Made by a program: the position numbers and the translations under genes. Positions 223 through 63,598 of a DNA stretch of 64,000 nucleotides are shown here, one piece after another. The DNA is taken from contig CAZSOS010000001.1 of assembly GCA_964608605.1 (NCBI GenBank), forward strand, positions 207,452 through 271,451, in the 5' to 3' direction. Every line of letters begins with the position of its first letter. The first letter of the stretch is position 1. The notes under the pieces are model-generated. The model was not told the DNA's origin. It saw only the letters and a program-made list of their open reading frames with translations, and ran no database searches. The DNA comes from an uncultured Candidatus Saccharibacteria bacterium. GTDB lineage: Bacteria > Patescibacteriota > Minisyncoccia > Phycocordibacterales > UBA918.

Positions 223-2274
223 ATGGCAAAAGGCAGTTACGACGCGTCCTCGATCAGCGTGCTGGAGGGATTGGAGCCGGTGCGAAAGCGCCCGGGCATG
301 TACATCGGCACCACCGGTCCGGACGGCCTGCACCATCTCATCTGGGAGATCTTCGACAACTCCCGCGACGAGGCCATGGGCGGACATGCCAACCGTATCG
401 AGGTAACCCTTCTGCCTGACAACTACATCCGCGTGGCCGACAACGGCCGAGGCATTCCGGTGGACAAGCATAAGCAGACCGGTGTCTCGGCCCTCGAGAC
501 CATCCTCTGCACTTTGCATGCCGGCGGCAAATTCGGCGGGGATGAATCCGGCTACAAGGTCTCGGGTGGCCTCCATGGCGTCGGTTCTTCGGTGGTGAAC
601 GCGCTGTCGACCCACATGATCGCCGAGGTCCACAAGGACGGCGGCTACTACATGCAGGAGTACTCGATCGGCAAAGCCAAGTACCAAGTGAAGAAAGTGG
701 GCAAGACCGAAGAGCACGGCACGATCATCACCTTCCAGGCCGACGTCAGCATTTTCAAGGAGATCAATTACGACTACAAGCGTATCGTCGCCCACCTGCG
801 CCAGCAGGCCTACCTGGTGAAGGCGCTCCGCATCACCGTCATCGACGCTCGAGAGCTCGACGAGAAGACCCTGAAGAAACTCGACCTTAAAGGCCAGATA
901 TACCTAGGCGATCTGGGAGTCGAAGCGCCGTCCATGACCTTCTACTTCGAAGAGGGCCTGCGTTCACTGGTCGCCTTCAACAACCAGCACCAGAAGGTCA
1001 TCCATAAGAACATCTTCTACGTGGAGAAGCTCGATCCGGCGCCGAACGTCTTTTCCGTCGAGGTGGCCCTGCAGTACGCTGACGATATCAGCCCGCGCGT
1101 CTCGGCCTTCGCCAACAACATCTTCAACCCGGAACACGGCACCCACATCACCGGCTTCAAGACCTCTCTCACCCGTACCCTCAATTCCTACGCGCGCAAG
1201 AACGGCTGGCTGAAGGAGAAGGACGATGCCTTCACCGGCGACGATGTCCTCGAGGGCATCACCGTGGTGGTGTCGGTGAAGATGCCGGAGATCCAGTTTG
1301 AAGGCCAGACCAAGGCCAAGCTTGGTTCCGTCGAGGCCCGTGGCGCGGTGGAGTCCGTCTTCAGCGAAGGCTTCTCCACCTTCCTCGAAGAGAATCCGGA
1401 CGACGCCAAGGCCATCATCAACAAGGTGATCATCGCCGTGAAGGCCCGCAAGGCGGCCAAGGCGGCCAAGGACAGCGTGCTTCGCAAGGGCGCTCTGGAG
1501 GGCATGTCGCTGCCTGGTAAGCTGGCCGACTGCCAATCCAAGCGAGCCGAGGACTCGGAGCTCTTCATCGTGGAGGGAGACTCCGCCGGCGGTTCGGCCA
1601 AGATGGGTCGCGACCGCAAGACCCAGGCCGTGCTGCCGCTTCGAGGCAAGATCCTCAACGTCGAGCGCGCCCGCATCGACAAGATGCTGGCCTCCGAACA
1701 GATCAAGAACCTAGTGGTGGCGCTTGGCACCGCCATCGGCGACGTCTTCGACCTGGGACGTCTGCGTTACCACAAGATTATCATCGCCACCGACGCCGAC
1801 GTCGACGGAGCGCATATTCGCACGCTGCTTTTGACCTTGTTCTACCGGCACTTCAAACCTTTGATCGACGGTGGCTATATCTACATCGCTCAGCCGCCGC
1901 TTTACAAGATCCAGAAAGGGAAGGAAGTGAGCTACGCCTATAGCGACGCCGAAAAATTCAACATCGTCGGCGAAGAGCCGGCCGAGGAGATCGAAGAGGG
2001 TGGAGAAGCCGAACCGGAGGCTGAAGAAGAAGGGGAGGTCGCCGCCAAGAAGAGCGGCAAGGCCCGCATCCAGCGCTACAAGGGCCTTGGCGAGATGAAC
2101 GCCGAAGAGCTTTGGGAGACCACCATGAATCCCGAGAACCGCGTCTTGAAGCAGGTCAATGTCGATGACGCCGAGGCTGCCGATCGCGTCTTCGACATCC
2201 TCATGGGCACGGACGTGCAGAACCGCAAGTCCTTCATCCAGTCGAACGCCAAGACCGCTAACTTGGATATTTAG
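223..2274 (+). CDS. gyrB: DNA gyrase subunit B
   Basis: 683 aa. GHKL ATPase motifs (IFDNSRDEAMGGH) and TOPRIM motif EGDSAGGSAKMGRDR are present. There is an acidic Glu-rich insertion (EEPAEEIEEGGEAEPEAEEEGE) near the C-terminus. -10 TATAAT at ~194. Confidence 0.95.
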   Translation: MAKGSYDASSISVLEGLEPVRKRPGMYIGTTGPDGLHHLIWEIFDNSRDEAMGGHANRIEVTLLPDNYIRVADNGRGIPVDKHKQTGVSALETILCTLHAGGKFGGDESGYKVSGGLHGVGSSVVNALSTHMIAEVHKDGGYYMQEYSIGKAKYQVKKVGKTEEHGTIITFQADVSIFKEINYDYKRIVAHLRQQAYLVKALRITVIDARELDEKTLKKLDLKGQIYLGDLGVEAPSMTFYFEEGLRSLVAFNNQHQKVIHKNIFYVEKLDPAPNVFSVEVALQYADDISPRVSAFANNIFNPEHGTHITGFKTSLTRTLNSYARKNGWLKEKDDAFTGDDVLEGITVVVSVKMPEIQFEGQTKAKLGSVEARGAVESVFSEGFSTFLEENPDDAKAIINKVIIAVKARKAAKAAKDSVLRKGALEGMSLPGKLADCQSKRAEDSELFIVEGDSAGGSAKMGRDRKTQAVLPLRGKILNVERARIDKMLASEQIKNLVVALGTAIGDVFDLGRLRYHKIIIATDADVDGAHIRTLLLTLFYRHFKPLIDGGYIYIAQPPLYKIQKGKEVSYAYSDAEKFNIVGEEPAEEIEEGGEAEPEAEEEGEVAAKKSGKARIQRYKGLGEMNAEELWETTMNPENRVLKQVNVDDAEAADRVFDILMGTDVQNRKSFIQSNAKTANLDI

Positions 2275-2310
2275 CACGCTAGGGTGAAGGGTTTAGGGTA
2301 GAGGGTTTAG

Positions 2311-2352
2311 AGACACAAAAGGCCGGCCCCAAGGGGCCGGCCTTTTGTGTCT
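2311..2352. terminator. bidirectional intrinsic terminator (GGCCGGCCCC-AA-GGGGCCGGCC hairpin flanked by ACACAAAA / TTTTGTGT)
   Basis: Perfect GC-rich inverted repeat with A/T tracts on both sides, lying between convergent genes. Confidence 0.7.
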
Positions 2353-2375
2353 AATACCAGTCTGACTAGTATATC
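2351..2375. repeat. AGTC-N-GACT palindrome family copy (ATACCAGTCTGACTAGTAT)
   Basis: Near-perfect palindrome immediately 3' of the gyrB terminator. Related copies at 8670, 29995, 6531 and 41265. Confidence 0.6.
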
Positions 2376-2377
2376 TG

Positions 2378-3130
2378 CTAGCGCACGTTCACGCGAGTCC
2401 GGAAGCTGTTATTCGAGCGATCGGAGTCAGAACCGCCTTCGACGGTCACGCCGACGTATTCCGAACCACGGGTCTCCGAAGCTCCGAAGACCACGGTCAA
2501 GGTGGCGCTTTCCTGAGGCTTCAGGGGGGCCTGCGACTTCGAGGTCATGCTAGAACCGTTAGGCAGCTCGGCAACGAACGTCCAATCGGACGAGGTCTTG
2601 GTGCCAAGGTTCTTCACCACGAACTGCATGGCGCCATTGTCGCGGCGAGACAGCTCGTCAGCGGCGACGAAACGGCCGGCAGAGTTCATGTAACCAACAG
2701 CTGAGAAGCTTACCGAAAGATCGGTGTGGCCCTTAGGATCGGAAACCGGGGTCTTGTAGGTGACCACAGTCTTCCACTGCACCGGCGTGGAAGTAGCGGG
2801 CTTGGAAACGACCGGAGTGATCGGGGCCGGAGTGGTGGTAACGGTCGAGGTCGCCGTCACTGCCGGAGTAGTGGTGGTAGCGGCCGGCGGGTTGGTGACC
2901 ACGATCTCATTATCGCCCTCGATCACGACAGTGTCGTTATCGTCATCATTGTCGGTCAACCGATCTTCATAGTCGCGCTGGTTGGCTTCGAAGATGTTGG
3001 CCAGGGAAGAGAAGGCGGTCGGGAGAAAACGTACTGCCTGCACGGCCAACCAGGCCAAGAGGCATACCATCACCACGAAGCCGATCACGGCCATCACGCG
3101 AAGCATCTGCTCGTTTCGTTCGTTGTTCAT
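2378..3130 (-). CDS. membrane-anchored Thr/Pro-rich surface protein (hypothetical)
   Basis: Likely start MNNERNEQ. N-terminal TM/signal anchor (VMAVIGFVVMVCLLAWLAV), acidic DNDDDND segment, T/P-rich linker (TTTTPAVTATSTVTTTPAPITPVV) and a beta-rich C-terminal domain. Confidence 0.55.
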   Translation of the reverse strand: MNNERNEQMLRVMAVIGFVVMVCLLAWLAVQAVRFLPTAFSSLANIFEANQRDYEDRLTDNDDDNDTVVIEGDNEIVVTNPPAATTTTPAVTATSTVTTTPAPITPVVSKPATSTPVQWKTVVTYKTPVSDPKGHTDLSVSFSAVGYMNSAGRFVAADELSRRDNGAMQFVVKNLGTKTSSDWTFVAELPNGSSMTSKSQAPLKPQESATLTVVFGASETRGSEYVGVTVEGGSDSDRSNNSFRTRVNVR

Positions 3131-3281
3131 AAATAAAATTCGATTAATCCTTATATGATACATGTTTTTAATGATTTGTCAAGGACGCTATCGTCGCGTT
3201 AAGTCAATGCCCGGCGGGTGGATATCCACCATCGCTTGGGCCCGGAGGGTAGGGGGCAGGTGGTCAGACGCGCCACCAACC

Positions 3282-3324: not shown

Positions 3325-4002
3325 ATGGATCTCTCCCGATTCTTCAACGAAATAATGCCGCGAATGAGCGCTTTCTTAGGCGTCTTCTTCGTGGTCATGA
3401 TGATCGGCTACGGCTTTCTCTATTTCATCGACTTCGTGCCCGAGGCCCCGACCGATAACGAGGCCAAGAAAGCCGAGGAAACCGCTTCAGTCATAGAGGA
3501 AGAACCGGCGGCAGCGCAGCCGGTCATCGAGGAAACCCCTACCGTGGCTATAAATAACGATCCTTTCCCGATCAGTATCTCTCTTAGCCCTCTAGATCGC
3601 ACCGTGACCGTCCTTAATCCCGCCTCCCGCAGCGTGGCCGATCTGGATGCCGCCTTGCTTAAGGGCGTGGTGCGCCACCCGGACTCGGCCGATCTCAACG
3701 ATGAACAGGGAAATATCCTTATTCTCGGCCATTCCAGTTACCTAAAGAACGTCTTCAATAAGAACTACCAGGCCTTCAACGGCATCCAGAACCTCAAATG
3801 GGGCGATACCATCACCCTCAAGTCGAGCGACATGGAATACACCTACCGCGTGGATAGGGTATACGAGGCCAAGGCTAGCGCCGTCATGGTGCCCACCAAG
3901 GCCAGCCAGGCCAAACTCACTCTGGCCACCTGCGATACTTTCGGCGCCAAGGAAGACCGCTTCATCGTCGAAGCCACTCTGGTATCCAAAAAGCCCCTAT
4001 AA
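3325..4002 (+). CDS. sortase family transpeptidase
   Basis: N-terminal TM anchor, catalytic His in ILILGHSSY and the TLXTC Cys motif (KLTLATCDTFG) typical of sortases. Confidence 0.8.
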   Translation: MDLSRFFNEIMPRMSAFLGVFFVVMMIGYGFLYFIDFVPEAPTDNEAKKAEETASVIEEEPAAAQPVIEETPTVAINNDPFPISISLSPLDRTVTVLNPASRSVADLDAALLKGVVRHPDSADLNDEQGNILILGHSSYLKNVFNKNYQAFNGIQNLKWGDTITLKSSDMEYTYRVDRVYEAKASAVMVPTKASQAKLTLATCDTFGAKEDRFIVEATLVSKKPL

Positions 4003-4145
4003 ACGGGGCTTTTTGGATGCTTGACAAAAAGACCCAAATATGCTAAGATGGTAGATAAGTAGGTTTCGGGAGTATAGTGCTTCCAAACCACCTCGTACCT
4101 TCATCAGTTCCTCAGGATTCGGTTCAAAACAGAAAGGAGCGCGTC

Positions 4146-4571
4146 ATGCGCCACATCATCCTCTCCGCCTTCGGCCTCCTGGCCGCGCTCATCATCTTCG
4201 CCTCATTCGGCGGCATCAACACCGCCGAAGCCGGACAGTACTGCAAGTCGGCCTCCACCTGCAAGGCGGAAGTCGCAGCCCTGACCAGAAGCCAGGACGC
4301 CGCGGCCCGCGGCGCGCAGTGGAAGGTCGGCCAGTCCAGCTGCCGCTCGGCGGCCGAACAGCAGAAGGCCAATGAGCGCCGCTGCCGAGCCTTCGACGCC
4401 AAATGGGGCGGCAAGACCCTGGAAGAATGCGCGCGCTGCTATCGGCAGGTCCGTGAGGACATCCGCCGGTGGGAAGCCTGCCACAAGGCTTCGGGGGGCA
4501 TCGTCCCGCCGCCGCCCGCGGCGATCTACGCTTCGCTGGCTCGCCTCGGCCAAATGGCCGGTTCGTTCTGA
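4146..4571 (+). CDS. small secreted Cys-rich protein (hypothetical)
   Basis: RBS AAAGGAG before the ATG. Signal peptide MRHIILSAFGLLAALIIFASFGGINTAEA, 8 Cys, Pro-rich tail PPPPAA. Confidence 0.5.
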   Translation: MRHIILSAFGLLAALIIFASFGGINTAEAGQYCKSASTCKAEVAALTRSQDAAARGAQWKVGQSSCRSAAEQQKANERRCRAFDAKWGGKTLEECARCYRQVREDIRRWEACHKASGGIVPPPPAAIYASLARLGQMAGSF

Positions 4572-4575
4572 ACTG

Positions 4576-4613
4576 AAAAAAGTGGTCGCGGATGATTCAT
4601 CCGCGACCACTAA
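4576..4613 (+). terminator. intrinsic terminator
   Basis: AGTGGTCGCGGATG-ATTC-ATCCGCGACCACT hairpin flanked by A/T runs. Confidence 0.6.
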
Positions 4614-4701
4614 AACATTCATTATGGATGTTGGCGACGAAACCATGTTTCGTCTTCATTATCCGGAATGATCCGGTAGTTACAAATTCTATCAATTATT
4701 T

Positions 4702-6381
4702 ATGAAAAATTTTATCAATACCAAGGTATTCCTCTTTGGCATCATCGCTGCCTCTACCGCAGCGGTCATGGTTTTTGTGGTCATACCTCAGTTTCCTCAG
4801 GTTAACAGTTCTATCGATGGCCTCAGCACTTCTATCGACAAGGTAGAGGCCTGGGGTGATTGGTCTGGTTCCGGAGACTACGGTTCCGGTTGTTGCGACT
4901 ATACCGGTGATAGTTATGATACTGGATGGGGCGACTGGTCTGGCACCGGCGACTATGGTTCCGGTTGTTGTGACTCCACTAGCGGTGGCGGCTACGGCGG
5001 AAGTTACACTCCTTCCACCCCCTCTACTCCAGACACCCCGACTTACACGCCTCCGACCTACGTTCCGCCTCCGACTCCGGCAGCCGTCTGTCATTATTTG
5101 ACAGCTAGTGCCTCGTCGGTGAAGTACGGCGGTGATACTGTCTACCTCTCATGGAGCACTAGCAACGCTGGATCGGTCTCGATCAGCGGCATCGGTAGCG
5201 TGGCCGCGAGTGGTAGTAACCACCCGGTATCCGTCAGCTCTGACACCACGTTCACTCTGACCGCCACTTCGGCCGGAGGCAACGGTTCTTGCGCCGTCAC
5301 TATCACGGTTCAGCCGCCTTTGGCCGCCGTTTGTAACTACCTTAATTCCAGCCACGTGAACGTGCCCGTCGAGGGCGCTACCGTGACCCTCTCCTGGTCG
5401 ACCACCAACGCTAGCTCGGTCTCGATCAGCGGCGTCGGTAACGTCTCTCCAGTGAATCAGGGACAGGTCAATGTCTTCGTTAGCGGTAACCGCACCTTCA
5501 CTCTGACCGCGGTCGGAACCGGAGGCAACGGTTCCTGCACCGTCTCTATCGGTACGAACATCACCAATAAGGATATCCCTCGCTGCGAATACCTGCGCGC
5601 CAACGTTGGCAACAACGTCAAGCGTGGCGATCGGATCACCCTTACTTGGGCGACCACCAACGCTGACATGGTCCACATCAGCCCGATGCCGGGAGGCGTC
5701 TCCCGCAACGGCTCCGAGACCGTGATCCTCGAGAACGACGTCAACACCTTCACTCTGACCGCTCGTAACTTCCAGACCAACAACGAAGCTACCTGTACGG
5801 TGACCGTGCGCGTCGATAAGGAGGACAAGACCCCTACCTGCGACCTCAAGGTCTCCAAGTCCCGCGTCAACCGCGGCGAGAAGGTAACCCTTTCTTGGAA
5901 GACCACCGACACCGAGGGTCTCCGCATCCGCGACGACCAGGGAAAGACCATCTTCGACATCTCGCACTACAGCGTCTCTGAGCGCCGCCACTACAAGACC
6001 GGCGAAGTGGACGTCATCGTCAACCGCAACACCGAGTTCATCATGAACGTTCGCGGTGAAGACAACTCCAGCCGCACCTGCCGCGTCGAGGTTACCGTTG
6101 GCGGACTCGAAGTCTACGAGAAGCGCGATCAGGGATACGTCATCGCTTTGACCCAGGTGCCTTACACCGGATTCGAAGCTGGCGCCTTCCTGACCTTCCT
6201 CTTCTACGCGGTATTGACCCTCTGGGCTCTCTTCATCGCTTACGTGCTCGTCATCAAGAAGGGCACTGTGCTTGGATTCTCTCTCTACGGCGCTACCGCC
6301 GGCTTGAGCGAGACCGACGTGGAGAACCGAAAAAAAGTAGAAGCGCTGGTAGCGAAGTACAGTGGACAGAACCAGAAGTAG
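4702..6381 (+). CDS. surface protein with Cys-rich tandem repeats, four Ig-like repeats and a C-terminal PYTG-TM-KKG segment
   Basis: N-terminal signal anchor, 2x GDWSG(S/T)GDYGSGCCD repeat, P/T linker, four ~85-aa repeats each bounded by Cys, then QVPYTGFEAG plus a hydrophobic stretch and KKG. Confidence 0.75.
   Translation: MKNFINTKVFLFGIIAASTAAVMVFVVIPQFPQVNSSIDGLSTSIDKVEAWGDWSGSGDYGSGCCDYTGDSYDTGWGDWSGTGDYGSGCCDSTSGGGYGGSYTPSTPSTPDTPTYTPPTYVPPPTPAAVCHYLTASASSVKYGGDTVYLSWSTSNAGSVSISGIGSVAASGSNHPVSVSSDTTFTLTATSAGGNGSCAVTITVQPPLAAVCNYLNSSHVNVPVEGATVTLSWSTTNASSVSISGVGNVSPVNQGQVNVFVSGNRTFTLTAVGTGGNGSCTVSIGTNITNKDIPRCEYLRANVGNNVKRGDRITLTWATTNADMVHISPMPGGVSRNGSETVILENDVNTFTLTARNFQTNNEATCTVTVRVDKEDKTPTCDLKVSKSRVNRGEKVTLSWKTTDTEGLRIRDDQGKTIFDISHYSVSERRHYKTGEVDVIVNRNTEFIMNVRGEDNSSRTCRVEVTVGGLEVYEKRDQGYVIALTQVPYTGFEAGAFLTFLFYAVLTLWALFIAYVLVIKKGTVLGFSLYGATAGLSETDVENRKKVEALVAKYSGQNQK
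4850..4990 (+). repeat. intragenic ~78-bp tandem repeat encoding GDWSG-GDYGSGCCD
   Basis: Two near-identical DNA units (tggggtgattggtctgg... / tggggcgactggtctgg...). Confidence 0.7.
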
Positions 6382-6512
6382 TCTGTCAGATCCCCACGAT
6401 CTGCCCGACCAAGGTCTACGAGCTTCCAGCGCCTACCGAGGATAGGCCAGAGCCTTACATAACCTATTATCACGACGATACTCCCCCGAACTTGCCTATA
6501 GGCGAGAAGCCC

Positions 6513-6547
6513 GACTACTTGAAGTAGTCCCACAAGTCAGACTTGTG
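6513..6547. repeat. two adjacent palindromes GACTACTTGAAGTAGTC and CACAAGTCAGACTTGTG
   Basis: Perfect odd palindromes 3' of the surface-protein gene. The second shares its core with 41265. Confidence 0.6.
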
Positions 6548-6567
6548 TAGACGGGCGGGAGCGAGAA

Positions 6568-6598
6568 AAAGCCGGACCATTTGGTCCGGCTTTTTCGT
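6568..6598. terminator. bidirectional intrinsic terminator
   Basis: AAAAAGCCGGACCATTTGGTCCGGCTTTTT. Confidence 0.75.
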
Positions 6599-6603
6599 TT
6601 TTG

Positions 6604-6742
6604 TTCTGTCATGATCGTATCATGAGAATCACTGGGCCATAGATCTTCATGATATCATCAATGATATCATGAAAAGGGCCGAGCAGATCGATCGCGTTCA
6701 CTGCGCCATGAAAAGACTAGGCGGATGATCTTACATGACAGA
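6604..6742. repeat. terminator-flanked module with clustered TCATGA palindromes and a 9-bp terminal inverted repeat (TCTGTCATG / CATGACAGA)
   Basis: Four TCATGA and two CATGA(A/C) sites within ~130 bp. The module is bounded by the terminators at 6568 and 6770. Confidence 0.4.
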
Positions 6743-6769
6743 ATATATTTATAGCACTCATCGTCCAAG

Positions 6770-6802
6770 ACAAAGGCCGGCCCCTTCGGGGCCGGCCTTT
6801 GT
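6770..6802. terminator. bidirectional intrinsic terminator
   Basis: CAAAGGCCGGCCCCTTCGGGGCCGGCCTTTG. Confidence 0.75.
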
Positions 6803-6821
6803 CTTGCCTCTGTGGCATCCG

Positions 6822-8564
6822 CTAAAGCGAACGCGCGGATACCTTGACTTTCAAGTAGTCAGCCAGCTCGTCGGCACTGTGCTCCAGCTTGCTGCCATCG
6901 CTCATTTCCAGGGTCAACTGTCCAGACTCGGCCTCCTTGTCGCCGATGACCACGAAGGCCGGGATCTTCTGTTGCTTCACCGCCCGGATCTTCTTGCCCA
7001 AGGACTCGTTGGCGTCATCCAGCATACATCTTATACCGGCCGCCTTGAGCTTCGCGTAGAGCTCGCGCGCCGGGTCATTGTGCTTCTCCGAGACCGGCAG
7101 GATGGCTACCTGCTCTGGTGCCAACCACAGCGGAAAGCGGCCGCCTAAGTGTTCGATCAAGACGGCCGAGAAACGCTCGATCGAACCCATGATGGCGCAG
7201 TGGATCATGACGATACGCTCTTTTTCGCCCGCCTCATTGATACAGGTGAGATCGAAGCGCTCCGGCAGGTTCATGTCGAGCTGGATGGTGGCCACCTGAT
7301 GCTCGCGGCCGATGGAATCCTTGGCCATGAAGTCGAGCTTGGGGCCGTACATGGCCGCTTCGCCAGGAGCTTCGAAGTAATCGGCCTGGCGCTCGCGAGC
7401 GATGTCACGGAGCGCGTTCTCGGCGTTATTCCAGATCTCTGGGGTGCCCAAGTACTTCTCCATCTCCGACGGTTCGTGGAAGGAGAGCCGGACTCGGAGC
7501 TTGAAGCCGAAGGTACCGTAGAAGGTGTCGACAATGTCCCAGATGCGGAAGAACTCTTCCTTAACCTGTCTGTGACGGCAGAACACGTGGCTATCGTCCT
7601 GAGTGATCGAAAGTACGCGGGTGAGACCGCCCAGCTCGCCTGACTGTTCGTCGCGATAGACCATGGTGGTCTCGGCGTAGCGTTGCGGCATCTCGCGATA
7701 GCTGTGCGGCTTGCGGTCGAAGATCTGCGTGTGGTGCGGACAGTTCATCGGCTTTAAAGCGTACTCCTTGCCCTCGCGGGTACTGATGCGAAAGAGTTCG
7801 TCGGCGAACTTCTCCCAGTGTCCGGAGGTCTCGTAGAGGTCCTTCTTGGTGATGTGAGGGATGGTGACCCGCTGATAGCCATGACTTTCCCGGAGCTCCC
7901 AGATGTAGGAATCAAGAGCGTGGCGCAAGACCGTGCCCTTAGTGGTCCAAAGCGGCAATCCGGCGCCGACCAGATCGGAGAAAGTGAAGAGATCGAGTTC
8001 CTTGCCGAGCTTGCGATGGTCGCGCTCTTTGGCTTCGGCCAGCTGCTTTTCGTAGGCTTCAAGCTCGTCTTTGGTCTCGAAGGCCAGGCCATAGATACGA
8101 GTCAACATGGCGTTCTGTTCGTCGCCGCGCCAATAGGCGCCGGCCACCTTGGTGAGCTTGAAGGACGCCGGGTCGATGTCCGCGGCCGGATTCTCACTAT
8201 GTCCGCCGCGACAGAGGTCCTCGAAGTCGCCGCTCTTGTAGAGAGTGATGGTCTCCCCGCTGTTCGCGATCTCCTCTATAAGCTCTAGTTTGTAGGGATT
8301 GCCCGCGAAGATGGTCCTGGCCTCCTCGGCCAAAACCTCGCGGTGAGAGAACTCCTTCCAGGCCGGCAATAGCTTCCTCATGACCTTCTCGATGGCCGGC
8401 AGATTGGCGTCGCCAACCGGTTCGCCTCCTTGGAAGTCGATGTCATAGTAAAAGCCGGTGTCGACGGCCGGACCGATGGTCAATTTGGCGTGCGGATATT
8501 TCTGCAGCACCGCCGCCGCCAAAAGGTGGGCAAGAGTGTGGCGTTTATGTTCGAGGTTGGACAT
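6822..8564 (-). CDS. thrS: threonyl-tRNA synthetase
   Basis: 580 aa with class II aaRS core and anticodon-binding domain, ThrRS-specific motifs, and the N-terminal HxxxH editing-like second additional domain. Confidence 0.95.
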   Translation of the reverse strand: MSNLEHKRHTLAHLLAAAVLQKYPHAKLTIGPAVDTGFYYDIDFQGGEPVGDANLPAIEKVMRKLLPAWKEFSHREVLAEEARTIFAGNPYKLELIEEIANSGETITLYKSGDFEDLCRGGHSENPAADIDPASFKLTKVAGAYWRGDEQNAMLTRIYGLAFETKDELEAYEKQLAEAKERDHRKLGKELDLFTFSDLVGAGLPLWTTKGTVLRHALDSYIWELRESHGYQRVTIPHITKKDLYETSGHWEKFADELFRISTREGKEYALKPMNCPHHTQIFDRKPHSYREMPQRYAETTMVYRDEQSGELGGLTRVLSITQDDSHVFCRHRQVKEEFFRIWDIVDTFYGTFGFKLRVRLSFHEPSEMEKYLGTPEIWNNAENALRDIARERQADYFEAPGEAAMYGPKLDFMAKDSIGREHQVATIQLDMNLPERFDLTCINEAGEKERIVMIHCAIMGSIERFSAVLIEHLGGRFPLWLAPEQVAILPVSEKHNDPARELYAKLKAAGIRCMLDDANESLGKKIRAVKQQKIPAFVVIGDKEAESGQLTLEMSDGSKLEHSADELADYLKVKVSARSL

Positions 8565-60086: not shown

Positions 60087-60157
60087 CGGGCCGTAGCATA
60101 GTGGTAGTGTTCGCGATTCGGGTTCGCGAGGTCCGAGTTCGATTCTCGGCGGCCCGA
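60087..60157 (+). tRNA. tRNA-Pro (anticodon CGG)
   Basis: Hand-folded. C1:G72 acceptor CGGGCCG/CGGCCCG with A73, as is typical of bacterial tRNA-Pro. Anticodon stem-loop CGCGA-TTCGGGT-TCGCG. T-arm CCGAG-TTCGATT-CTCGG. Confidence 0.75.
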
Positions 60158-60209: not shown

Positions 60210-60237
60210 GGTCCGAGTTCGATTCTCAGTGGGCCAG
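60210..60237 (+). pseudogene. tRNA 3'-half fragment (T-arm plus partial acceptor) duplicated from tRNA-Pro
   Basis: GGTCCGAGTTCGATTCTC is identical to 60130-60147. No matching 5' acceptor strand is present. Preceded by the CGGAAGTCCC/GGGACTTCCG hairpin. Confidence 0.6.
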
Positions 60238-60239
60238 CA

Positions 60240-60557
60240 TCAGATTTTGATGAGTCCTTCATGTATTTCCATATGGCAATTAGCACACACGAGGATACAC
60301 TTCTCGACCTCAGCCTTTGTTTTTTCCCAAGAACGAGTCAAACCTCTGGACGATAAACCGAAATCTTTTTTGCTAGGGTCGGTGTGGTGAAATGATAAAG
60401 CACGTTTACATTTCGCATAACCACACATTCGGCATTTACCACCTCCGTACTCAATAGCCATATCCTTGAGTTTCTTTCGCCTCTTTATAACGGCCGCTTT
60501 TATATATTCGGCCCTGTCCGCATAAGTTCTTTTTTCAATTCTTCGTGGCATATACAC
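60240..60557 (-). CDS. HNH endonuclease (105 aa, free-standing)
   Basis: GTG start. CRMCGY...HH-DP...CANCHMEIH HNH/zinc-finger motif. Wedged between tRNA fragments and the intron-bearing tRNA-Asn. Confidence 0.8.
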   Translation of the reverse strand: MYMPRRIEKRTYADRAEYIKAAVIKRRKKLKDMAIEYGGGKCRMCGYAKCKRALSFHHTDPSKKDFGLSSRGLTRSWEKTKAEVEKCILVCANCHMEIHEGLIKI

Positions 60558-60657: not shown

Positions 60658-61007
60658 TCCCCTGTAGCTCAGCGGTAGAGCAGTCGACTGTATGTATTGC
60701 AGCTTCCTAGGGAAACCTAGGTCGAAAAGAAGGTGAATTGTCCGAAGCGCGCAAGCGCAACGGATCCGGAACCGCAAGGTTCTAGGACTGGAAACCCAAA
60801 CGTGTAGTCGTGGGCAATCAGCAGCCAAGTCCTCAGAGTAATCTAAGGAAAGGTTCAGAGACTATCCCTAACGGGAGTAGCCGAGCAAGAAATTGCTCCA
60901 GGCGAAGCGCCTTCCACCCCTTTCGGGTGATGATATAGTCCACGCCCTTTGGAAACATCGGGATCAGTGTAATCGATTGGTCGCAGGTTCGAATCCTGCC
61001 GGGGGAG
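60658..61007 (+). tRNA. tRNA-Asn (anticodon GUU) interrupted by a group I intron between positions 35 and 36
   Basis: The 5' exon TCCCCTGTAGCTCAGCGGTAGAGCAGTCGACTGT and the 3' exon TAATCGATTGGTCGCAGGTTCGAATCCTGCCGGGGGAG splice to a canonical Asn tRNA (U1:A72, G73, loop CUGUUAA) closely matching E. coli tRNA-Asn. Confidence 0.8.
60692..60969 (+). ncRNA. group I self-splicing intron (278 nt, no ORF)
   Basis: R element GTTCAGAGACTA at 60853-60864 and S-like GATATAGTCC at 60933-60942, giving P7 GACUA/UAGUC. The 5' exon ends in U and pairs with IGS GCAG through a U-G wobble. The intron ends in G. Confidence 0.75.
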
Positions 61008-61008
61008 C

Positions 61009-61045: not shown

Positions 61046-61192
61046 GAGCCCGGAGAAAGTGCCAGTGGCACTTTCGTCAGGATTCGAAGACCTTGCCAGA
61101 TATTTTGTGACGCAAAGAAACAAAATATCGACAAGGTGTACCGCCCATGTAATGGGAGAAATTCCTGCCGGGGAGCTGAGGTATAATTTTAT

Positions 61193-61699
61193 ATGTTAGG
61201 TTTTGTATCTATGGAATTTTTAATACTTTCCCTCGTAATACTAGGAGTAGTGGTACTGGCAGTAGTTACATTAAAGCTCTTTTCAATATCAAAGACCGAC
61301 CAACCACTCCCTTACCGAGCTAAACAATATTTCTTTTCTCGCTCGGAGCAAGAGTTTCTTAGAATTTTAAACGAATCACTCGATAGGCAACGCTTTGTGA
61401 TTTTTCCAAAAGTGAGACTTGCTGACTTTATAGAAGTGACTATTAGAGGACGTGAGTACCAAGGTTGGTTGAGTAAAATTAAATCAAAGCATGTCGACTT
61501 TCTAATTTGGGATGTTAAAAATCACAAAATAGCCTTAGCAGTTGAGTTAGACGGTAAATCCCACAACATTGAACCTATGCAAACAAGAGATGAGTTTGTT
61601 AACCGGCTATATGACAAGGTGGAAATAAGATTAGTAAGAGTCAAAGTAGGTAGCAATTTCTTGACAGAAGCAAAAATTATATCTGAATCTTTAAGTTAA
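61193..61699 (+). CDS. DUF2726-like (restriction-endonuclease-fold) membrane-anchored protein
   Basis: AT-rich. N-terminal TM, then FPKVRLADFI...HVDFLIWDV...LAVELDGKSH, which resembles the DUF2726/NERD-like nuclease fold. Confidence 0.6.
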   Translation: MLGFVSMEFLILSLVILGVVVLAVVTLKLFSISKTDQPLPYRAKQYFFSRSEQEFLRILNESLDRQRFVIFPKVRLADFIEVTIRGREYQGWLSKIKSKHVDFLIWDVKNHKIALAVELDGKSHNIEPMQTRDEFVNRLYDKVEIRLVRVKVGSNFLTEAKIISESLS

Positions 61700-61741
61700 T
61701 TAGACTGAGGCGTATACTAAGCACAATAAAACTTCTGGCTG

Positions 61742-62791
61742 ATGAAAAAGGAATTCCCTGAATTTTATAGTTTAAGTAAAGACGAGATAACCGCACTATG
61801 GGAGGGGTGCATATTCGCTTTTGATGCAAATGTCCTTCTTAATCTCTACAGATATTCTCTAGACACTAGCGATAATCTAATCTCAATCTTAAAAAATTTC
61901 TCCGACCGCATTTGGATGCCACACCAGTTCGCTCTTGAGTACCAAAGGAATCGAATGGTGGTGATAGAAGGTCAGCGGGTTAAGTACATGGGGAGTATAA
62001 AGAATATTCTAGGTGAACTGGAGGTCGTAGAGGAACTCCTAGGTAACTACTACGGGAAAATGCCTTTTGACATCAAGAAGATAAAGAATGATTTGTTGAA
62101 GTCTCAGGAAGAGTACCCTGGATGCACATCAGAGGACAAAATGCGGGAGGAAATCGACGCACTTTTCGAGAATAAGGTAGGTAGTCCTTTCGACGAAAAA
62201 AGAATGCTCGCAGTGATAGACGAGGGCAAAGAAAGATACCAAAAAGAAATGCCGCCGGGTTACTGCGACGCGTTAGAAAAAGATAAGAATGATCCCACTA
62301 AGACTCGGAAATATGGAGACCTTATTGGGTGGCTTCAAATGATCGAGAAAGCTAAAACCGAGAAGAAACCCCTTGTATTTATCACCAGTGAGCGAAAGGA
62401 AGACTGGTGGCAAATCGTAAAGGGAAAAACTGTTGGTCCTAGGCACGAATTATTGAAAGAGTTTCAGAAAGAAACTGGAGAAGCATTTCATATGTATGAT
62501 ATGAAACGCTTTCTTGACTATGCGAAAGAAAAACACACAGTCAAAAAGAAAACTATTGATGAAGTTATAAAAATTGATGAAGTGTATAATAACAGCGTCG
62601 CAAGTGAACTTGGGGTAGTTGTTGGTGGTGATACTCCCACTTTGTCAGACTATCTAGTGAACCCTGTAGGTTGGCCAATTACGGAAGCATCATCACAAAC
62701 TTCATCTGTGGAAAAGGAGTCCGCTTGGATTATTGTGCCAGAAAATGATGACGGCACAGGAAATCTGGCAACAGGTGACAGGGAACAATGA
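61742..62791 (+). CDS. PIN-like domain protein (DUF4935-type) with uncharacterised C-terminal half
   Basis: AT-rich. N-terminal IFAFDANVLLNLY (PIN strand 1 Asp), YGDLIGW and ITSERKEDWW acidic positions. 349 aa. Confidence 0.6.
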   Translation: MKKEFPEFYSLSKDEITALWEGCIFAFDANVLLNLYRYSLDTSDNLISILKNFSDRIWMPHQFALEYQRNRMVVIEGQRVKYMGSIKNILGELEVVEELLGNYYGKMPFDIKKIKNDLLKSQEEYPGCTSEDKMREEIDALFENKVGSPFDEKRMLAVIDEGKERYQKEMPPGYCDALEKDKNDPTKTRKYGDLIGWLQMIEKAKTEKKPLVFITSERKEDWWQIVKGKTVGPRHELLKEFQKETGEAFHMYDMKRFLDYAKEKHTVKKKTIDEVIKIDEVYNNSVASELGVVVGGDTPTLSDYLVNPVGWPITEASSQTSSVEKESAWIIVPENDDGTGNLATGDREQ

Positions 62792-62795
62792 ATCT

Positions 62796-63074
62796 ATGAA
62801 GACTTATTTGATAACATACGACTTAATTAAGCCGGAAACTAGCGCGGATTACGTAAAGCTTTTCGCTAATATAAAATCACATCTTGGCTGGGCCAAGCCC
62901 ATGAGATCAGTCTGGTTGATAAAAACTAACAGGTCTAGGGATGAAATCATGAAATTGTTGAGATCAGCAGGTGACAGCAATGATAAATTTTTAGTGATGG
63001 AAGTTACAAGGGAATGGATAGCTTTTAACCTTCCAGCAAGTGTCATTACATGGATGAAGGATGAGATTAAATAA
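62796..63074 (+). CDS. small alpha/beta protein (93 aa), translationally coupled partner of the PIN-like gene
   Basis: Its ATG overlaps the upstream TGA (ATGA). MKTYLITYDL...DYVKLFANIKSHLGWAKPMRSVWLIK resembles the beta1-alpha1-beta2 pattern of Cas2/VapD-like folds, but there is no CRISPR context. Confidence 0.5.
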   Translation: MKTYLITYDLIKPETSADYVKLFANIKSHLGWAKPMRSVWLIKTNRSRDEIMKLLRSAGDSNDKFLVMEVTREWIAFNLPASVITWMKDEIK

Positions 63075-63202
63075 TTTATTAAGATTTTAGTTGTTTATAA
63101 AAGTTCTAACGTCCTCCCAAGCGGTGAGCCAATAAAATCACCTTATTTTACAAGGTGATTTTTTGATATCCAAATAGGGTTCAGAACTGATATAATAAAA
63201 AT

Positions 63203-63598
63203 ATGAAATTAGATGCAATAAGCGTAACCAGCACAGACTTAGAAAAATCAGCCAAGTTCTATTCCTTACTAGGTTTTACTTTCCCTACATTTGGGAAGGA
63301 TGAAAAACATATAGAACCCCAAACAAAAAATGGCGAGGTGAGACTTATGATAGATACTGCTGATTTGATTGAAAGTATCACTGGCTCAAAACCAGTGCCT
63401 CCAAATCATTCTTCGTTTGCAATACTGTGTGAGCAACCTTCAAAAGTAGACGAGGTCTGTATAAAAATAAAAAATGAAGGGTTTGTTGTCATAAAAGAAC
63501 CTTGGGATGCATTTTGGGGACAAAGGTATGCAATTGTTCAAGACCCAGATGGTTATATGATTGATTTATTTGCACCGCTAGAAAATAGTACCACTTAG
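63203..63598 (+). CDS. VOC/glyoxalase-bleomycin resistance family protein
   Basis: 131 aa with the glyoxalase-like beta-alpha-beta-beta-beta module pattern. AT-rich. Confidence 0.7.
   Translation: MKLDAISVTSTDLEKSAKFYSLLGFTFPTFGKDEKHIEPQTKNGEVRLMIDTADLIESITGSKPVPPNHSSFAILCEQPSKVDEVCIKIKNEGFVVIKEPWDAFWGQRYAIVQDPDGYMIDLFAPLENSTT

Follow-up and report, generated by a model that had tools for sequence, protein, structure and literature searches.

The 64,000-nt window analysed here (positions 207,452 to 271,451 of contig CAZSOS010000001.1, assembly GCA_964608605.1, from an uncultured Candidatus Saccharibacteria bacterium) was found to carry, within an AT-rich island, a gene for a 349-aa protein of the nuclease family PIN_8 followed by a gene for a small protein related to Cas2 and VapD. 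Comparison with related loci supports the view that these genes are a conserved and closely coupled unit, each encoding a predicted nuclease; the unit looks, as far as can be judged from sequence, like an undescribed toxin-antitoxin or anti-phage module. Both genes are judged to be more than chance open reading frames (ORFs), since 845 homologues of the PIN_8 protein were found, many of them on plasmids and prophages, and a profile search with the small protein returned 2187 cluster representatives at E ≤ 1e-3, nearly all of 85–95 aa. The features of the locus and of selected related loci are given in Table 1.

The 349-aa protein matches the Pfam family PIN_8 (PF18476) over the whole model, with 180.2 bits against a cut-off of 26.1 (E 7e-53; residues 24–237 aligned with profile positions 1–227 of 227). 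It also matches phrog_9788, while no match was obtained in NCBIfam. An earlier note on this DNA, made from the letters alone, had pointed to a PIN-like N-terminal strand and to further acidic motifs. Both observations hold, the strand lying at residues 23–35 (IFAFDANVLLNLY) and six acidic residues (D28, E66, D132, D176, D193, and D221) being unchanged in an alignment of 43 PIN_8 homologues; the protein has a PIN-like fold with four to five conserved acidic active-site residues. The description of the protein as DUF4935-type has to be replaced by PIN_8, as PIN_12/DUF4935 (PF16289) scored 24.6 bits, under its cut-off of 32. The same applies to the C-terminal ~170 residues in which no motif had been recognized: the conserved PIN_8 fold extends to about residue 286, the predicted structure is ordered over residues 1–286, and only residues 287–349 lie outside it. 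This 63-aa tail has an isoelectric point (pI) of 4.05 and a net charge of about −9, and residues 287–343 are predicted to be disordered (predicted local distance difference test below 50). Directly before it, an 18-nt tandem repeat of 2.3 copies (62549–62594) encodes a duplicated IDEV motif (TIDEVIKIDEVYN). PIN_8 and DUF4935/PIN_12 are catalogued as families of unknown function in the VapC group (Matelska et al., 2017, PMC5499597).

The stop codon of the PIN_8 ORF (TGA, 62789–62791) is separated by 4 nt from the ATG of the small gene at 62796. It had been proposed that the two genes overlap in an ATGA, but the ATG at 62788, read in another frame, starts an ORF of just 3 codons (ATG-AAT-CTA-TGA), and the start MKTYLITYDL, encoded from 62796, is common to 17 of 17 close homologues of the small protein. 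What stands of the proposal is a small ORF ending at 63074 in tight coupling with the gene before it; its product has 92 residues and not 93. The longest mechanical ORF for the small gene, from TTG 62733 (113 aa), has a start which is not conserved. True 4-nt overlaps of the two genes do exist at the orthologous loci L007, L036, L060, L097, and L107. The hairpin which appears to close the operon was overlooked by a terminator consensus scan because its stem is A/U-rich. A promoter scan returned sites no commoner than in shuffled controls, with none convincing 5' of the operon.

The small protein has no match at E ≤ 1 in Pfam, Cas2 (PF09827) included, and none in NCBIfam, but it matches the uncharacterized family phrog_1090 (E 2e-22). 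The family to which it belongs consists of more than 2000 clusters at 50% identity and has no well-fitting Pfam model. Its position becomes visible through relatives: 42 of 123 diverse members match Pfam CRISPR_Cas2 (PF09827) at E ≤ 0.1 (best 1.9e-8), with collinear alignments (residues 4–70 against profile positions 3–69), and a staphylococcal phage homologue, 37% identical to the protein of the window, reaches 35.9 bits (cut-off 23.8), again collinearly. On account of these matches the protein can be placed in the Cas2/VapD superfamily, as a predicted member of a family outside the clustered regularly interspaced short palindromic repeat (CRISPR) systems; the guess of the earlier note at a Cas2 or VapD pattern is thus supported. 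Nothing significant was obtained when the family profile was compared with sequences in the PDB, and likewise for a phage homologue annotated as Cas2. D9 is found at the end of beta1 and S38 in the beta2-beta3 turn, which would correspond to the catalytic Asp position of Cas2/VapD and to the Ser or Ser-Ser-Thr position of VapD/BPSL1038, respectively (PMC10491678, PMC11980593). Both residues are invariant among the close homologues (alignment A1), whose genes lie 3' of a PIN_8 gene at every locus examined. In the wider family S38 is conserved in 81%, and Y8, W40, D63, and W86 in more than 90%; W40, D63, and W86 are motifs of the family's own, which also has a C-terminal helix.

The suggestion that a coupled two-gene nuclease module is present is borne out by at least 14 loci with differing flanks, the junctions of 14 paired loci ranging from −4 to +10 nt. 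In a Parcubacteria island (L001–L006) the pair has a Fic gene on its 5' side and LexA-S24-methylase genes on its 3' side, in a gammaproteobacterial metagenome-assembled genome (MAG; L007) it comes after a methyltransferase-MutH pair, and in L008 and L009 it is part of an element that also encodes a serine recombinase and a Rep protein. It is also found in Saccharibacteria and other MAGs (L012, L022, L036) and on seven metagenome contigs (L058, L060, L096, L097, L107, L117, L134). The flanks of the Parcubacteria, gammaproteobacterial, metagenome, and other paired loci are unrelated. The tight junctions persist down to about 40% PIN_8 identity, and the pairwise identities of the two partners covary over the loci (Spearman 0.62). 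The order is reversed in three places, with the small gene preceding a long PIN_8 gene: viral contig L159 and the plasmids pC51_006 and pHW114B. A weak Abi_2-like match was noted for the 220-aa first gene of the two plasmid operons. In L014 and L015 the gene tightly upstream of the small gene encodes a protein of PIN_12, a different PIN family.

PIN_8 proteins with the small partner differ from those without. Their length is 318–369 aa in eight of nine cases, compared with a median of 438 aa for solo proteins (Mann-Whitney p 1e-5), and the tails that follow their cores have a median of 52 aa and a charge per residue of −0.18, compared with −0.03 in 150 solo tails (p 6e-7). The protein of the window follows the partnered pattern. 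It was also considered whether the long tails of solo PIN_8 proteins hide a Cas2-like domain, and this idea found no sequence support: in a search of 104 solo tails, with all filters off, a hidden Markov model of the small family gave no hit better than E 0.014.

Beyond PIN_8, defence or switch genes make up most of the tight neighbours of the small gene in genome loci. In Patescibacteria and other MAGs (L034, L024, L027, L023) the genes downstream of it encode a Cap4-like SAVED-endonuclease, Shedu SduA, a restriction-modification (RM) enzyme of the MmeI type, and a 1076-aa ResIII/PbeA-like helicase, often with LexA-like S24 regulators nearby. The first of these is of the type found in the cyclic oligonucleotide-based antiphage signaling system (CBASS; PADLOC E 3e-128). 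Further tight neighbours are PDC-M30A, a PycTM-like protein, and M78 peptidase regulators as well as those of the LexA-like S24 type. In cultured organisms, homologues also stand first in a Thoeris operon and, on Acinetobacter plasmids, in a type I RM operon (Table 1), one of them being annotated as 'SinR-like'. In the P2-like phage R18C the small gene lies between tail-fibre and tail-sheath genes, and in a P2-like Klebsiella prophage it adjoins the portal gene; these sites are equivalent to the P2 Z/fun and old/tin variable regions. It is found within prophage lysogeny modules, and also on 4.9-kb plasmids of the ColE1 type, on which no PIN_8 gene is annotated nearby.

The pair may be a mobile two-nuclease conflict module of the toxin-antitoxin-like or abortive-infection kind; this is the reading we favour, tentatively. 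The upstream gene would provide a VapC-type, metal-dependent PIN_8 nuclease with its catalytic acidic residues intact and a short acidic, disordered tail, and the downstream gene, translated in step with it, would provide a small basic Cas2/VapD-like protein with D9 and S38. The two proteins would form a complex in which nuclease activity is restrained, most likely through contact of the acidic PIN_8 tail with the basic nucleic-acid-binding face of a Cas2-like dimer. Loss of the element or infection by a phage would then free the cleavage of RNA or DNA and result in growth arrest. On grounds of geometry the Cas2-like protein is the better candidate for the toxin-like partner and the upstream PIN_8 protein for its neutralizer, because the upstream protein ends in an acidic, disordered tail and the downstream protein is small and basic and keeps residues of the catalytic type; a neutralizer encoded before its toxin is also the common order. 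The setting is supportive: the island is AT-rich and adjoins tRNA genes, and relatives of the small gene occur in operons for defence, at P2-like hotspots, and in the lysogeny modules of prophages. VapD-like proteins are toxic on expression and are neutralized by varied, non-homologous partners (PMC11980593), and for solo Cas2 homologues encoded beside resolvases or relaxases on mobile elements a role as addiction toxins has been proposed (Makarova et al., 2012, PMC3506569), a pattern into which L008 fits.

Several observations weigh against this conflict-module reading. PIN_8 loci were sampled from metagenomes and IMG/VR (160 loci, 139 of them with at least 350 nt downstream), and the small gene adjoins only nine of the 160 (eight downstream and one upstream, about 6%). 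Conversely, PIN_8 is present at 7–8 of 47 genome loci of the small family, a set which was found with the narrower alignment A1 and is therefore biased towards closer relatives. The link is lineage-specific, and the exclusive pairing implied by the earlier note does not hold. The Cas2-like gene may be able to do without PIN_8, given that it is found by itself or beside many other genes; PIN_8 genes are in turn mostly solo, for example on the E. coli plasmid NZ_CP069548.1, and may therefore not need a partner. This plasmid is of 2.1 kb, which suggests that solo PIN_8 genes bring a selectable benefit by themselves. (In the 2099-bp record, hit H113, the PIN_8-like gene spans about 750 bp.) Neighbour-joining placed the partnered PIN_8 proteins in two pure clades (seven and six members) and as two singletons, so that the statistics on length and charge rest on few independent events. 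D9 is kept in only 79% of the wider small family, and the nuclease activities of Cas2 proteins in vitro are weak and their roles debated. It is also conceivable, though doubtful, that the two genes are independent neighbours, the Cas2-like gene being autonomous and promiscuous cargo (a solo VapD-like toxin, an exclusion factor, or a regulator) that became fixed by chance beside one PIN_8 lineage. The 2187 cluster representatives of its family and the solo state that is the rule among PIN_8 genes would agree with this, as would its company of Thoeris, type I and MmeI RM, Shedu, CBASS Cap4, helicase, and LexA-like genes and its presence in hotspots of P2-like phages, in lysogeny modules of prophages, and on 4.9-kb plasmids, in each case without PIN_8 next to it. 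Chance fixation is harder to reconcile with junctions that stay so short at about 40% PIN_8 identity, with an association that recurs in either gene order, with tail features that are specific to partnered PIN_8 proteins, and with the tight pairing of the same small gene with PIN_12.

The classical polarity implied by the earlier note, with PIN_8 as the toxin and the small Cas2-like protein as an antitoxin acting either by binding (in the style of VapW-VapD) or by cleaving mRNA (in the style of the Cas2-fold antitoxin GhoS), is unlikely. The small protein keeps D9 and S38, which VapW antitoxins have lost (PMC11980593), it is basic and encoded downstream, both unusual for an antitoxin, and PIN_8 is evidently tolerated without it, since most PIN_8 genes have no such partner. 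A broader and more speculative proposal, which we hold to be rather improbable, is that the small family represents an unrecognized portable component of prokaryotic immunity which plugs into many unrelated effectors, namely PIN_8, PIN_12, Thoeris, CBASS Cap4, Shedu, and RM systems of type I and of the MmeI type; its role could be, for example, that of a shared sensor, a licensing factor, or an RNA-level controller, and in the PIN_8 pair it would take its simplest form, two proteins joined through the acidic tail of PIN_8. That the small gene is an orphan cas2 left behind by a CRISPR adaptation module is very hard to credit. The Cas2 fold, the weak similarity of relatives to Pfam Cas2, and the annotation of some phage homologues as 'Cas2' could be read in this way; however, there is no CRISPR-like repeat array within the window, no Cas protein among the proteins of the island, and no cas1 among the annotated neighbours at related loci, and the family has its own motifs (W40, D63, W86) and C-terminal helix.

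The earlier note could not assign the pair to a named system, and this is supported for the systems compared here. No family in PADLOC-DB v2.0.0 was matched at E ≤ 1 by the PIN_8 protein, the small protein, or the DUF2726 protein encoded before them, and in the literature searched, which was incomplete and to which newer DefenseFinder and PADLOC catalogues did not belong, neither the pair, nor a partner of PIN_8 or DUF4935, nor the occurrence of this Cas2-like family in defence operons is described. The systems closest to the pair include the VapD-type toxin-antitoxin systems VapXD, VapYD, and VapWD and stand-alone VapD/Cas2-like nucleases such as BPSL1038. Shared features are the size of the small protein (about 90 aa), its Cas2/VapD ferredoxin fold with one more helix at the C-terminus, the Asp that closes beta1 and the Ser in the turn between beta2 and beta3 (PMC11980593, PMC10491678), and residence on mobile elements, where the partner varies or is absent (PMC11980593, PMC10491678, PMC3506569). 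In contrast to these, the partner here is a 349-aa PIN_8 nuclease and not an SH3-fold VapX or VapY or an inactive VapW, the small protein falls under the Pfam Cas2 threshold, and toxicity is known for VapD-like proteins whereas the pair of the window is known from sequence alone. The sole tightly linked gene is PIN_8 and no second Cas2-like ORF was seen; SH3-fold partners were not sought by structure.

With VapBC the pair has in common a VapC-group PIN fold with conserved acidic residues and a two-gene, translationally coupled operon on mobile DNA. The PIN toxin of VapBC is small (~130 aa), however, and PIN_8 is 2–3 times larger, with long helical insertions; in place of an upstream DNA-binding, VapB-like antitoxin there is the DUF2726 gene, whose product has a hydrophobic N-terminus, and the partner is located downstream and is itself nuclease-like. 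The larger protein is a bona fide member of PIN_8 as described by Matelska et al. (2017), in whose survey the DUF4935 genes are mostly monocistronic and no partner is named (PMC5499597), whereas the sub-lineage described here comes with a Cas2-like partner of its own and with an acidic tail. The Cas2 of CRISPR-Cas shares with the small protein its fold, the collinear match of relatives to PF09827, and a conserved Asp, but here cas1 and a CRISPR array are missing, the neighbours are DUF2726, PIN_8, and glyoxalase genes, and both the motifs and the other genomic contexts are the family's own.

The AT-rich island named in the earlier note was confirmed. The G+C content of the 3 kb surrounding the pair is 39–41%, compared with about 57% in the rest of the window, which outside the island is ordinary chromosome with the housekeeping genes hisS, ung, fba, and prmC. 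A VOC gene lies in the same AT-rich tract, 3' of the terminator of the pair, and GC-rich sequence is found again from about 63860. The island adjoins tRNA genes, and the evidence supports carriage of the pair on mobile or defence-island DNA. The group I intron in the tRNA-Asn(GTT) gene was identified with Rfam at 53 bits (gathering score 50; E 8e-12), and ARAGORN detects this gene only with its intron option, a default run having missed it. The 3' part of the gene is 84% identical to the start of L008, so that another genome has the module beside the same intron-bearing tRNA. The HNH gene may be a free-standing homing endonuclease tied to the intron or the island. At 60210–60235, 80 nt downstream of the tRNA-Pro gene, the 3' end of that gene (60130–60155) is partially duplicated (88%). 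This copy may be an integration scar at the left edge of the island; it was the only attachment-site repeat found at the island boundaries, with no matching repeat on the right.

The DUF2726 gene is on the same strand as PIN_8 and ends 42 nt before it. The trio of DUF2726, PIN_8, and small gene is syntenic in L008 and L009, with 76% nucleotide identity over 61320–63075, and at the other paired loci DUF2726 does not precede the pair. It is possible that DUF2726 is a third member of the module in the lineage of the window, L008, and L009 only. A 125-nt segment which stands before the trio in the window (61052–61176) is found after it in L008 (5297–5416), suggesting a circularly permuted or rearranged element. 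In L008 the trio adjoins the serine recombinase and the Rep gene.

Table 1. Features of the PIN_8/Cas2-like locus (window positions unless a locus is named) and of selected related loci.
Feature	Position	Strand	Basis or remark
HNH endonuclease gene, 105 aa, between tRNA-Pro and the intron-bearing tRNA-Asn	60240–60557	−	phrog_2255, E 1e-27
tRNA-Asn(GTT) gene, anticodon loop split by a 278-nt group I intron	60658–61008	+	Rfam Intron_gpI
DUF2726 gene, 168 aa, hydrophobic segment at the N-terminus	61193–61699	+	PF10881, E 2.5e-23
PIN_8-family nuclease gene, short form, 349 aa	61742–62791	+	ORF; Pfam PIN_8
Pfam PIN_8 model match, residues 24–237	61811–62452	+	profile from 1 to 227; holds D28, E66, D132, D176, D193, D221
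Acidic Ser/Asp/Glu-rich, predicted disordered C-terminal tail of PIN_8, residues 287–349	62600–62788	+	predicted local distance difference test; charge
Shine-Dalgarno-like AGGGAA (putative), within the end of the PIN_8 gene	62780–62785	+	10 nt 5' of the small gene's ATG
Small Cas2/VapD-like protein gene, 92 aa, basic, pI 9.5	62796–63074	+	
Terminator-like hairpin, 11-bp stem, 7-nt loop, U-tract, closing the operon	63134–63165	+	fold of 63070–63180
Glyoxalase/bleomycin-resistance-fold (VOC) gene	63203–63598	+	PF00903, E 3.5e-14
DUF2726 gene of L008	3294–3803		
DUF2726 gene of L009	1733–2242		
L226, K. pneumoniae ColE1-type plasmid pC51_006, 5240 bp	362–3151		operon of 220-aa gene, Cas2-like gene, 574-aa PIN_8
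L218, Rahnella ColE1-type plasmid pHW114B, 6 kb			220-aa gene, Cas2-like gene, PIN_8 annotated as two overlapping ORFs
L034	5001–6419		small gene coupled upstream of defence genes
L024	5001–6678		small gene coupled upstream of defence genes
L027	4372–8020		small gene coupled upstream of defence genes
L023	3800–8524		small gene coupled upstream of defence genes
L223, B. thuringiensis pBMB26	4001–5797		small-gene homologue first in Thoeris ThsA(Macro)-ThsB(TIR) operon
L224, Acinetobacter pittii plasmid	3578–8276		small-gene homologue first in type I RM operon, after helix-turn-helix regulator

PIN_8 is a large nuclease family of unknown function, for which a defined partner and a partner-specific tail provide the first testable functional handle. 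Klebsiella and Rahnella carry related arrangements on plasmids of 5–6 kb; being tractable counterparts of the window pair, these make the hypothesis directly testable in E. coli. The branch of the Cas2/VapD superfamily to which the small protein belongs is very large, lies outside CRISPR, and is found repeatedly inside known defence operons or at their head. Understanding this family could show how Cas2-like proteins act outside CRISPR, which is relevant to the old proposal that a toxin was the ancestor of Cas2.
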